A stretch of DNA of 61,662 nt, the filler included, from Candidatus Babelota bacterium (lineage in GTDB: Bacteria > JAGOBX01): NCBI GenBank assembly GCA_017999075.1. It is 13 parts of 13 records of this genome, joined end to end, with 100 filler letters (N's around TTAATTAATTAA, not from the genome) between each part and the next. Parts side by side here need not be neighbours in the genome. Positions count along the whole stretch, not along the records: positions 6,208 to 20,089 come from JAGOBX010000039.1; 12 more parts are not named here. One strand, written 5' to 3'. Shown piece after piece: positions 6,090 through 8,826 of this stretch. The notes beneath the pieces are model-generated. The model was not told the origin of the DNA. It made no database searches and worked only from the letters and a program-made list of their open reading frames with translations. The stretch's first letter is position 1. The number at the start of each line of letters is the position of its first letter. A program made the position numbers and the translations under genes.

Positions 6090-6207
6090 TGCGCAAGTAT
6101 ATTTTTCNNNNNNNNNNNNNNNNNNNNNNNNNNNNNNNNNNNNNNNNNNNNTTAATTAATTAANNNNNNNNNNNNNNNNNNNNNNNNNNNNNNNNNNNNN
6201 NNNNNNN

Positions 6208-6324
6208 ATATTTGGGCAAACAATTTTTCTTTAAATTATTATAAACTGTTTTTCTTGAAATACCCAGCATTTCAGCAATTTGTGTTTGAGTTAAACCTTT
6301 ATTTAATAAACTTTTTATTTCCAT
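6208..6324 (-). CDS. Helix-turn-helix protein N-terminus, resembling IS21-family IstA; truncated by contig end (not in ORF track)
   Basis: Translates MEIKSLLNKGLTQTQIAEMLGISRKTVYNNLKKNCLPKY, preceded by AGGAGG SD. Confidence 0.65.
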
Positions 6325-6343
6325 GTATTCCTCCTATGATAAA

Positions 6344-6349
6344 TATCAA
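6344..6349 (-). promoter_or_regulatory. -35 half (TTGATA) of IS110 circle-junction promoter
   Basis: After circularisation at AGGAG it lies exactly 17 nt from TATGAT (7884-7879). Confidence 0.65.
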
Positions 6350-6606
6350 TATTTTTTATAAATAACCTACACTTTGTATTTTTAACACAATAATTACATT
6401 GACAAATGTCCTTAAATTTTATATTTAATTATTTGCCTCTTGCTTTTTGCTTTTTTCAGCCGTTTTAACCATTCGGCTGTTTTTATCTTTGAAGCACAGG
6501 CAAGGGGTTCCTATAAAAATATAAAACCTCTTTCAAATCAAAGGAAAAAACATAAATAAAAATGGTTCGGGGTTTGGGGCAGAGCCCCAATATTATTTTT
6601 CCCTTT

Positions 6607-7635
6607 TTATATTTTCTTTAATTCAAAGTTCTTGAAATTTTCAAACTCCCAATTATTTTTTAACGTTTTATATATAATTCCTAACATTTTTCTTGCTGTT
6701 GCTATTATCGCTTTACCTGCGCCTCGTTTTAACTTTATTCGTTTATAAAATTCTTTTATATGCGGAGAAAACTTCATCGCTATCAGAGTTATTTGCACTA
6801 ATGTCGTTCGTGCTATTTTATTTCCGAATTTTGTTATATGTCCTCGTTTTTGTTTTCCGCCACTGTCATATCCACGTGGTACTATTCCGAAATATGCAAA
6901 CAATTTTTTCTCGCTGGCAAAATTCATTATGTTCCCGATTGTATTCAGTAAGATAGACGCACTCAATGTTCCGATTCCGGTTATACTTATTAAATTTTTG
7001 AACCCGTCCATTTTTTGTCCGTGTTTTTCAATCTCTTCGTCAAGCTTTTTTATCTGCTCATTTAACGCATGTATCGTATCTACAATATTGCCTACTACAA
7101 AACGATTCGTTTCGCTAATTCCTTTTACTAACTTCACTTCTTCCAACTGTTTGCGGCTTCCGAATGTTTCGCGTTCTGTTACAATGCCTTCACTGTTCAA
7201 TATCCCGTGAAGCTGGTTCTTTAATGTGCTTCGGCATTTAACAAGTTTGTCTCGCGTGTTTATCAAATTTTGTATTGCTCGTTCATCTTTGTTTTTCATA
7301 CGTATTTCCGGTATCATATCTTTTTTTAAAAATTCGCTGATAGTTTCAGCATCTCGTTTATCAGTCTTGTTTACTGATTCGCTTATTACTTTAAACTTAT
7401 GCGTGTTTATCACTTTAACCGTTTTTACCAAACCTGAAATCTGATCATAAAAATATCCTGTATTACCGCTCGATTCAACCGCAACTTCACACTCTTTATT
7501 CAATTTTTTTTTGAATAGCGCATATCCGACCGCGTCTGTTTTATATTCCGTCGTTTTTTTTCGACCCTTATCGCTAATCCAGCACACTGTAAAACTTCGT
7601 TTGTGTAAATCTACACCTGCATATCTGTAATTCAT
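6607..7635 (-). CDS. IS110-family transposase/recombinase (DEDD RuvC-like + Tnp20 domain)
   Basis: GVDLH, VAVES, KTDKRDA (D-E-D-D), ITGIG, YFGIVP..YDSGGK (catalytic Ser), ITKFGN, KAIIATARK. Confidence 0.96.
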   Translation of the reverse strand: MNYRYAGVDLHKRSFTVCWISDKGRKKTTEYKTDAVGYALFKKKLNKECEVAVESSGNTGYFYDQISGLVKTVKVINTHKFKVISESVNKTDKRDAETISEFLKKDMIPEIRMKNKDERAIQNLINTRDKLVKCRSTLKNQLHGILNSEGIVTERETFGSRKQLEEVKLVKGISETNRFVVGNIVDTIHALNEQIKKLDEEIEKHGQKMDGFKNLISITGIGTLSASILLNTIGNIMNFASEKKLFAYFGIVPRGYDSGGKQKRGHITKFGNKIARTTLVQITLIAMKFSPHIKEFYKRIKLKRGAGKAIIATARKMLGIIYKTLKNNWEFENFKNFELKKI

Positions 7636-7644
7636 CTTAACCTA

Positions 7645-7872
7645 CCTCCGCTTAAAATATTTTAAAATTCCGCAGAGTAGATTATTTATTGCGACTTGGG
7701 TTCGTCTTACTCCTATCCAGGCATTAACGCCTATATTGGCTTTTACGACAGCAGGTGGCAAGATTACTCTCCTTTCCCGGGTTCTTTTATGACCCACAAA
7801 AAATAATCCAATCTGCTGCCTTCTACTCCGCGTTGTTTTATTTTACTTCGCGAAGTTAACCCGCGCTATATT
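7645..7872 (-). ncRNA. Putative IS110 bridge RNA (seekRNA) with target- and donor-binding loops; ends approximate
   Basis: GC-richer non-coding left end. Outer stem 7832-7822/7681-7671 and two internal-loop hairpins. Guides AAAGGAG (7775-7769) and ATAGGAG (7716-7710) match the left flank and right end. Confidence 0.75.
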
Positions 7873-7878
7873 TTATTT

Positions 7879-7884
7879 ATCATA
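7879..7884 (-). promoter_or_regulatory. -10 half (TATGAT) of IS110 circle-junction promoter
   Basis: 4 nt inside the left end; pairs with TTGATA of the right end at 17-nt spacing in the circle. Confidence 0.7.
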
Positions 7885-7911
7885 CCATCTCCTTTTTTTA
7901 AAAATGAACAA

Positions 7912-8826
7912 TTAAAACCAGTCAATCAAAATTTTTAAATCTTCAATATCTCCGTTTTCGATTTCAAGAGTGAAAAGGTTCAGACCCTTTTCTTTCAGCT
8001 TTCTTACGATAGGCTTTAAATTTTGGGAACATTCATTATAAAGATGGGAATGAGAATCTCTGATTTTAGTTTTTTCAGTGACTTCAGTCATTAAATTATG
8101 ATTTAAATGAACCCCGAAAATTTTTTTTTTTTCTATTATTTCTTCGCATATTTCATAAAAATTAAAATTATGAATCAGAGAAGAGCACCATAAATGTCCT
8201 GTATCTAACCATAAATTGTCTATAAGTTCAAATATTTCTATAGGTCTTTGCAGACCGCTTCCCACTCCGACAAAATCATTTTCAAAACAAATTATATAAT
8301 CAGGATAACAATTTCTTAAAAATAAATAATTGCGTTTGAATATATTTTTATAATATTCGAATTCTTCAGTTTCGAAAAAAGAAGGATTCATTATAAAAGA
8401 TTTATCAAGGCAATATTTTTCAGGGATATTTGCCCTTAAAATTTTTCTGTAGTTTGCCATATCATGAGGTATCAAACGATCTGTCATAAAGAAACCATGG
8501 GAAAAAAATATGTTGGTGTCGAATATTTTAAGGTGATTTACAGCATTGGCACTTTGTTTTTTGATATTTTCAAAATCAGGATGAGCAAGATTGAAAAAAT
8601 ATTCCGCAAGCACAGGAGAATGAACTGTAAACCGTATATGGTTTTTTAATTCCAACAACTTGTCATATAGATTTTTTGTTATAGAATTATGGATTTGAAT
8701 GCCGAAATTAAACCCTGCCAGTTCGGCAATTTTTTTTGCTTCAGATATCTTAGATAAATAATTATCTTCATTCAGACACATTGAACTGTATTCTACAGTG
8801 ATTTTTTTATTAAACAAATCAGGCAT
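7912..8826 (-). CDS. Xylose-isomerase-like TIM barrel (sugar phosphate isomerase/epimerase family)
   Basis: Metal-ligand motifs TVHSP, FEND, WLDTGH, VHLNHN..DSH, TLEI. Confidence 0.7.
   Translation of the reverse strand: MPDLFNKKITVEYSSMCLNEDNYLSKISEAKKIAELAGFNFGIQIHNSITKNLYDKLLELKNHIRFTVHSPVLAEYFFNLAHPDFENIKKQSANAVNHLKIFDTNIFFSHGFFMTDRLIPHDMANYRKILRANIPEKYCLDKSFIMNPSFFETEEFEYYKNIFKRNYLFLRNCYPDYIICFENDFVGVGSGLQRPIEIFELIDNLWLDTGHLWCSSLIHNFNFYEICEEIIEKKKIFGVHLNHNLMTEVTEKTKIRDSHSHLYNECSQNLKPIVRKLKEKGLNLFTLEIENGDIEDLKILIDWF

Follow-up and report, generated by a model that had tools for sequence, protein, structure and literature searches.

What does the left end of an IS110-family insertion sequence encode ahead of the transposase gene, and how does such an element choose its sites? 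These questions are raised by an element located at positions 6331-7888 (minus strand, 1558 bp) of a 61,662-nucleotide stretch of joined DNA from a Candidatus Babelota bacterium (assembly GCA_017999075.1), hereafter the window, in which the element occurs once. An earlier note had proposed that the region 7645-7872, upstream of the transposase gene, specifies a bridge-RNA-like guide RNA whose two loops match target and donor DNA, and our comparative tests support this reading. From comparisons of related loci, we consider it very likely that the minus strand of 7672-7831 specifies the bridge (seek) RNA belonging to the element, and that its two-guide loops direct insertion to ribosome-binding sites (RBS). 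Two points go beyond the earlier note: the target appears to be the Shine-Dalgarno/start-codon region, and the 5' strand of loop 1 appears to be a second guide. In our assessment, the observation is confirmed and its interpretation as the bridge/seek RNA of a distinct RBS-targeting clade is supported.

A conserved, predicted two-module RNA upstream of the transposase gene

Inspection of the single sequence reveals an outer stem, CGCGGAGUAGA/UCUACUCUGCG (7832-7822 / 7681-7671), enclosing two stem-loop-hairpin modules, as the earlier note had described. The first module comprises stem 1, GGCAGCAG/CUGCUGUC (7820-7813 / 7754-7747), and an internal loop with the hairpin cap GGGUC..GAACCC (7778-7796), and the second carries the cap AGGCG-UUAA-UGCCU (7719-7732). 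All these features lie on the minus strand, and the named helices all appear in the minimum-free-energy fold of 7645-7872, which reaches -69.8 kcal/mol compared with -49.7 +/- 4.2 kcal/mol in 200 shuffles (z = -4.78), none of which folded as well.

To compare this fold across the clade, related loci were fetched with an alignment of 27 transposase sequences, genome contigs and metagenome contigs contributing 80 each; in the genome-contig scan a single-protein query gave no relatives, whereas the alignment query succeeded. Of 58 distinct upstream sequences, 48 were aligned (alignment A2), the ten left out being near-duplicates (L064, L089, L094, L110) or sequences with large insertions (L070, L075, L080, L096, L120, L148). 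RNAalifold predicts 30 pairs from the 48 sequences, 16 of which exhibit compensatory changes. In a 38-pair structure of our own, 93.3% of the cells are paired across the 48 homologues, as opposed to 32.7-41.0% after sliding the partners by 1-3 columns. Changes on both sides occur in 20 of these pairs, where shuffles give 10.0, and the structure has a covariation score of 0.270, where they give 0.141; neither value was reached in any of 500 shuffles (here and in all permutation and shuffle tests below, loci are treated without correction for relatedness). The structural covariation that the earlier note had named as a check is present. Helices 1, 2, 4 and 6 (outer stem, stem 1 and both caps) are strongly supported by compensatory changes: 100% of cells are paired in the loop 1 cap (helix 4), with 5/5 pairs changing on both sides, and 98.3% in the loop 2 cap (helix 6), with 4/5 such pairs. 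The inner extension of stem 1 (helix 3, 82% of cells paired) and the loop 2 closing stem (helix 5, 84%) are weaker. G.U pairs are frequent (e.g., 12 at columns 15/101) and their number fits an RNA encoded on the transposase strand, not a DNA motif.

A covariance model of the core, R1, derived from alignment A2, finds exactly one copy per locus, upstream of the transposase gene and on its strand, in 80/80 genome loci and 79/80 metagenome loci; 47 of the loci were seeds of the model, and the lone miss has only 66 nt of upstream sequence. The window core (7672-7831), itself a seed, scores 80.6 bits (E = 3e-18). R1 also matches the element of a Tardibacter plasmid (L177). It has no match at E <= 10 in the IS5075 and ISYen1 loci, in an IS110-family locus of Klebsiella or in two copies (L161, L162) of a second IS110 family present in genome G001, nor does it find anything in the non-coding right end of the window element. 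A search of 6300-8200 against Rfam 15 gave 7 matches at E <= 10, all far below gathering scores and none spanning the RNA core. Judged by sequence comparison, this is a non-coding gene kept with the transposase and endowed with a covarying two-module fold, as is characteristic of bridge/seekRNAs.

Loop 1 carries putative guides to the insertion target

The 3' strand of loop 1, GAAAGGAG (7769-7776; reading NNAAGGAG), carries the motif NAAGGAG. In the window, AAAGGAG at 7775-7769 is identical to the left flank plus core at 7895-7889, an identity already pointed out in the earlier note. Being a sense copy of the left target, this putative left-target guide would therefore pair with the bottom strand. 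Guides and flanks were compared at 81 distinct insertion sites (L142, with a mis-parsed left junction, is counted there and removed in the test using one site per RNA). At positions -6 to -1, guide and flank agree in 77-81 of the 81 sites, both sides being nearly invariant there; the flank itself reads AAGGAG in 77-81/81 sites, position by position. At position -7, the guide matches the flank in 60/81 sites compared with 34.05 after permutation (p < 1/5000), and in 45.4/63 compared with 24.5 when one site per distinct RNA is used. Natural guide variants identical to their own flanks occur in L109 (UAAGGAAG), L138 (UUAUGGAG), L083 (AUGGAG) and L005 (CAGGAG). By these comparisons, the target loop agrees with the insertion flank and varies as the flank varies, which is the covariation on which the earlier note had made its proposal depend.

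The 5' strand of the same loop, GAUUAUUUUUUG (7797-7808), exhibits complementarity to the core and right flank and would be the right-target guide, pairing with the top strand. Its longest complementary run is 4.24 nt compared with 3.60 nt when flanks are swapped among loci, 4.31 compared with 3.65 nt when each flank is shuffled, and 4.32 compared with 3.75 nt with one site per RNA. The p values are at or near the smallest that the tests permit; the signal is weak but significant. The best cases, L055, L069 and L103, show complementarity over 8-9 nt, start codon included. In the single-sequence fold, part of 7797-7808 also pairs with 7767-7761 inside the window RNA. Two other relations of this strand were tried and rejected: neither pairing with the left flank (antisense runs of 3.16 vs 3.18 nt) nor copying of it (sense runs of 2.74 vs 2.67 nt) is significant.

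The two bases that follow the left-target guide (7767-7768) are handshake-like: they equal positions 1-2 of the left end in 76/88 cases, compared with 59.1 after permutation. In the window they read AG where the left end reads AT, that is, one of two matches.

Loop 2 carries putative guides to the element ends

The 3' strand of loop 2, GAUAGGAG (7710-7717), is a sense copy of the right end of the element and the putative left-donor guide. The earlier note had seen AUAGGAG (7716-7710) to be identical to the right end at 6337-6331, and this identity is held across the clade, the guide reading NAUAGGAG in 95/97 loci and the right end CATAGGAG in 90/90 ends read. On the 5' strand, GCCA (7737-7740) is a candidate right-donor guide, complementary to TGGT of the left end (7887-7884) with one G.T pair. 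Written as GYCA, this loop 2 motif complements positions 2-5 of the left end, and the pairing first proposed from the window gains support from RNA column 110 (U/C), which is complementary to left-end position 4 (A/G) in 43/44 sequences. A further candidate, copying of the right flank by the two bases after the loop 2 guide, was rejected (28/83 vs 23.1, p = 0.12, not significant).

The element inserts between Shine-Dalgarno sequence and start codon

Element boundaries can be read from a relative with 91% protein identity, L081, which holds the same element at a different site. At the left end, similarity between the two begins at AAAAGGAG, followed by ATGGTATG, and the sequences upstream of AAAAGGAG have diverged; at the right end, similarity ceases past CATAGGAG. 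Four multi-copy genomes, with 10, 7, 5 and 5 copies, share one rule: AAGGAG closes the left flank, the element opens with an ATGGT-like sequence and closes with CATAGGAG, and the right flank is copy-specific. Public contigs from three DNA runs of two studies break at 6330-6334 and at 7894-7899 and continue into other sequence; beyond the left break, at least four other left flanks are seen with AAGGAG at the end of each.

In the window, the A-rich left flank (7889-7899) ends with the Shine-Dalgarno-like left target AAGGAG, the last AG of which is the likely crossover core. The first element bases are ATGG (7885-7888), from which point copies are identical; together with T 7884 they form the 5-nt right-donor segment ATGGT. 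The last element bases, GGAG (6331-6334), make up ATAGGAG with 6337-6335, a putative replacement RBS. The right flank (6322-6330) consists of the 6-nt spacer GAATAC and the ATG of a host gene, which starts at 6324 on the minus strand, encodes a helix-turn-helix-like N-terminus and runs for 39 codons before being truncated at 6208.

This arrangement recurs across the clade. An open-frame start codon lies 3-14 nt past the element in 70/79 distinct right flanks, most commonly at 6 nt, with 55/79 at 5-7 nt. Because a start codon and an open frame follow the element, we take the left target AAGGAG to be a Shine-Dalgarno sequence. Read in this manner, the element sits between the Shine-Dalgarno sequence and the start codon in the sense of the gene, its own ATAGGAG apparently replacing the RBS. 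At one locus, L109, the left junction retains the bases of the target itself up to position -3, which places the crossover 3' of -3; the core is thus probably the last two bases, AG.

Mycobacterial IS110-family elements (IS900, IS901 and IS902) also insert between an RBS and a start codon. The IS900-type transposase gene is antisense to the target gene, whereas both run in the same direction here. Our literature search found no paper tying bridge RNAs or IS110 to a Shine-Dalgarno or RBS-targeting clade, although the supplements of the bridge-RNA and seekRNA papers may list related elements; a 2026 preprint (10.64898/2026.08.14.744561) makes no mention of Shine, ribosome, start codon, subterminal or clade.

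Subterminal inverted repeats lie just inside both ends: TATGATAAATA on the left (7874-7884), which includes the -10-like TATGAT (7884-7879), and TATTTATCATA on the right (6335-6345). In the window, they are 11 nt long and 100% complementary (7884-7874 vs 6345-6335); clade-wide they are 7-11 bp long and covary, and in the joined circle of most of the clade 10 bp separate them. The right-end non-coding region between the right repeat and the transposase gene (6346-6606, approximately 260 nt) is kept in L081 and has a -35-like TTGATA at 6349-6344; the non-coding right end as a whole measures approximately 275 nt.

Some peculiarities of the ends deserve mention. The left ends of the window element (7880-7888, minus strand) and of its relatives begin, directly after the host RBS, with an ATG that is separated from a stop by 1-3 codons (in the window, ATG GTA TGA); this short frame may simply result from the subterminal repeat, or it may serve to halt incoming ribosomes. 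In L081 (positions 1-345), the element adjoins a CRISPR array of at least 5 repeats of 30 nt, and the end of the last repeat contributes to the AAAAGGAG target. In L005 (1460-1545), the right-end terminus (approximately 33 nt ending with CATAGGAG) is present twice, 44 nt apart, which may represent a solo end or a tandem remnant. Beyond the truncated host gene, positions 6108-6207 of the window hold TTAATTAATTAA between two 44-base N runs, a linker with a stop codon in each of the six frames that suggests joined contigs.

The transposase and its relatives

The transposase gene (6607-7635, minus strand) is an intact frame of 342 aa preceded by its own GGAGG RBS (7649-7645). The protein matches DEDD_Tnp_IS110 (PF01548, 3.7e-18) and Transposase_20 (PF02371, 1.5e-20), both exceeding the cut-offs, and residues D9, E54, D92 and D95 are invariant across the 27 aligned sequences. 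Its SITGIG motif lines up with SIPGIG of ISCro4; the serine of this motif is presumably catalytic. With an N-terminal RuvC-like DEDD domain and a C-terminal Tnp domain, the predicted protein is an IS110-family DEDD transposase, and hence a putative bridge recombinase.

The database holds 1324 protein relatives at E <= 0.001, the best being 91% identical. With phmmer, the window protein reaches 75.7-98 bits when compared with IS5075, ISYen1 and a Klebsiella relative, and 48.8-49.7 bits when compared with IS621 and ISCro4; the IS621 match (48.8 bits) falls mostly in the C-terminal domain. By comparison, IS5075 against IS621 gives 51 bits. Protein identity to IS5075 and IS4321 is 26-28%. A clade member with the same two guides, the transposase of which is 42.8% identical, resides on conjugative plasmid pHSL4 of Tardibacter chloracetimidivorans (L177:1006-2238). 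Genome G001 (of L011; L161-L176) contains 11 matches with the 369-aa frame of the clade; another IS110-family element, the frame of which is 383 aa long, is present there in 5 copies.

Relation to the IS110 and IS1111 groups

How does this RNA compare with those already described? The loops of the IS621 bridge RNA contact the bottom strand through their 5' strands, over 8-9 nt, and the top strand through their 3' strands, over 4-7 nt (Durrant et al. 2024, PMC11208160). The window element resembles IS621 in having the RNA in its left end, upstream of the gene for a DEDD/Tnp recombinase, and in the two internal-loop modules, one for target and one for donor, each of which would address both DNA strands around a 2-nt core (PMC11208160). 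The two handshake-like positions, additional bases that agree with the non-cognate partner, recall the handshake guides of IS621 (Hiraizumi et al. 2024, PMC11208158). Unlike in IS621, the order of the guides is reversed, the sense guides predicted to pair with the bottom strand being on the 3' strands (PMC11208160). The probable core is AG instead of CT, the right target half is defined only loosely, the protein is distant (48.8 bits by phmmer), and the subterminal repeats are 11 bp long whereas those of IS110-group elements are 2-3 bp long (PMC11208160).

The earlier note had remarked that the guides appear flipped relative to IS621. The remark is right with respect to the IS621 description (PMC11208160), yet the flipped order is not a new geometry since IS1111-type seekRNAs have the same one: in those of ISEc11, ISKpn4, ISPa11 and ISPst6, the sequence complementary to the top strand precedes the one matching the bottom strand (Siddiquee et al. 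2024, PMC11187229), as it does here. IS1111-like as well are the long subterminal repeats, which are 7-17 bp and usually 11-13 bp in that group (PMC11187229), 11 bp here and 12 bp in the IS5075 pair found by the same analysis. The protein scores are higher with IS5075-like proteins (76-98 bits) than with IS621 and ISCro4 (49-50 bits). In IS1111 elements, the left and right extensions beyond the repeats measure 7 and 3 bp, respectively (PMC11187229), and the 10 bp between the joined repeats of most of our clade would fit 7 + 3 only if the AG core is assigned to the left end, with the crossover at AGG|AG, which L109 supports at one locus. In IS1111 elements the RNA lies downstream of the transposase gene, with few exceptions such as ISMtsp17 (PMC11187229), while here it is upstream in 159/159 matches. 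Further differences are the lack of an R1 match in IS5075 and ISYen1 and the low identity to the IS5075 and IS4321 proteins given above. The seekRNA of ISEc21, of the IS110 type, is similar in that a short RNA from the upstream non-coding region matches both target strands, but there the bottom-strand match comes first and the top-strand match second (PMC11187229), an order opposite to the one found here.

With a guide order and repeats that are IS1111-like and an RNA that lies upstream of the gene, the clade mixes defining features of both groups, and its placement is provisional. We entertain, tentatively, the possibility of an undescribed lineage between IS110 and IS1111. Such a lineage would combine an upstream RNA with IS1111-style repeats and guide order, a target loop hard-wired to the translation-initiation region, borrowing of host transcription and a replacement RBS. 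Its 6-7-nt guide would copy the Shine-Dalgarno sequence, and a looser second guide would complement the spacer and ATG.

A model for targeting, insertion and expression

The proposed RNA would consist of two modules of the same design inside the outer stem, each with a stem, an internal loop and a hairpin of the GGGC..GACCC type. The 3' strand of each loop, a sense copy of the DNA left of the crossover, would pair with the bottom strand: NAAGGAG of loop 1 with the left target, i.e., the Shine-Dalgarno sequence, and AUAGGAG of loop 2 with the right end of the element. The 5' strands would pair with the top strand right of the crossover: the one in loop 1, which varies among relatives, shows loose complementarity to the spacer and start codon in front of which the element sits, and GYCA of loop 2 is the complement of left-end positions 2-5. 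By analogy with IS621 and the seekRNA elements, transposase dimers on the two loops would join the circular element junction (right end-left end) with the target, and strands would be exchanged at the 2-nt AG core. The outcome would be an insertion between RBS and start codon, in the orientation of the gene, with ATAGGAG substituting for the RBS. The fold, the agreement of guides with DNA and its covariation, the rule for insertion sites and the architecture of the ends are read from the sequences; expression of the RNA, its binding by the protein, the chemistry of strand exchange and the junction promoter are inferred.

Joining of the ends would set TTGATA (6349-6344) 17 nt from TATGAT (7884-7879), generating a putative junction promoter; a promoter across joined ends has been described for the family, IS1111 elements included (PMC11187229). 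In the integrated element, the RNA may be transcribed by read-through from the host gene. Two further sequences in right ends relate to promoters. The window element has a promoter-like TTGTCA-16 nt-AAAAAT (6378-6405, minus strand) facing the host gene, which could be an outward-reading promoter. In L011-L020, L045-L050 and L051-L058, approximately 10 nt before the right repeat, the right ends contain GGAGTAGAC, which resembles the 5' outer-stem sequence GGAGUAGAU and which, in the joined circle, would occupy the -35 place of the junction promoter.

Alternative explanations and evidence against a guide RNA

Could the left end be something other than a guide RNA, or the RNA of an element still able to move? 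The region lies directly upstream of the transposase RBS (7649-7645) on the same strand and contains three GGAG motifs, and its single-sequence fold pairs sequences beside the RBS region with the far 5' part. All this would suit a 5' leader that regulates translation or stability of the transposase mRNA, the GGAG motifs being RBS mimics or sequestering partners. Such a leader leaves unexplained why the loop 1 motif changes with the insertion flank, why loop 2 equals the element end in every relative and why right flanks have a complement in the 5' strand of loop 1. We find it very unlikely that the region is a leader and nothing else, although a leader role could coexist with the guide role. 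Many transposons have subterminal protein-binding repeats, and AAGGAG and ATAGGAG do repeat the junction sequences; the motifs might thus be DNA-level subterminal binding sites for the transposase, i.e., internal copies of the ends, with no RNA involved. That hypothesis, however, does not account for helices maintained by compensatory changes and by G.U pairs, which are C.A mismatches on the opposite strand, nor for the strand specificity of the modules, found on the transposase strand in 159/159 matches. Moreover, the family members whose experimental study is described in PMC11208160 and PMC11187229 use RNA. We regard a purely DNA-level function as scarcely credible. The RNA family may also be real and the window copy a decayed, immobile relic. 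Its R1 score of 80.6 bits is the lowest but a few of the full-length matches, for which 100-150 bits are typical, and the loop 2 closing stem of most relatives is unformed in the window copy, being degenerate in L081 and partly in L082 as well. Yet the transposase frame is intact with its DEDD residues, and the 91%-identity copy (L081) bears the same loop 2 variant at another site. Public contigs show a near-identical element at several flanks as well as an unoccupied form of the right-flank site, both pointing to recent mobility, and a relic appears improbable to us.

Several results weigh against the bridge-RNA reading itself, beginning with the unformed loop 2 closing stem just mentioned. 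In loop 1, position -8 is without signal (25/81, p = 0.27), guide and flank mismatch at one or two positions in L053, L095, L111 and L156, and the 5' strand of the window copy matches its own right flank over 4 nt only. The match of loop 2 to the right end is invariant and is therefore identity, not covariation; for the 5' strand of loop 2, the longest run complementary to the left end does not differ significantly from expectation (3.55 vs 3.45, p = 0.20). Both the handshake-like match and the association of column 110 with position 4 may rest on few independent evolutionary changes. As to expression and transposition, a search of the minus strand of the left end gave no sigma-70-like promoter; one RNA run (X12) contains 0.08 of the sampled words and yielded zero contigs, and no circle-junction joint was found in the public contigs, the only material searched for it, two results that are no evidence either way. 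Finally, the two flanks seen in the window may stem from different copies of the element. This is suggested by the contigs, which show the unoccupied right-flank site and a copy with a different left flank: the right flank of the window without the element is preceded by a different left sequence ending with AAAAATGGAG, and in one contig the element follows that same left sequence, in which position -5 is A and not T. Alternatively, the contig search may have caught only the guide-matching allele. The earlier view of the two window flanks as halves of one target is weakened to the extent that the contigs suggest two different copies.

Implications

If the bridge-RNA reading is correct, this is a natural bridge RNA aimed at a near-universal signal rather than at a rare site, with a left-target guide as short as 6-7 nt, and it provides an RNA-level explanation for IS110-family elements located between ribosome-binding sites and start codons. 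For engineering purposes, it offers a compact RNA encoded in the left end with a guide order opposite to that of IS621, and the clade member in the cultured Tardibacter chloracetimidivorans (L177) supplies a culturable host for experiments. Since the clade combines features that separate IS110 from IS1111, it bears on how the RNA moved between element ends in evolution. Should the tentative placement between the two groups be true, the element would slot in before many genes in the sense orientation, borrowing host transcription for both its RNA and its transposase and supplying the gene with a replacement RBS; taken together, this would be an RNA-guided way to keep insertions cheap for the host.

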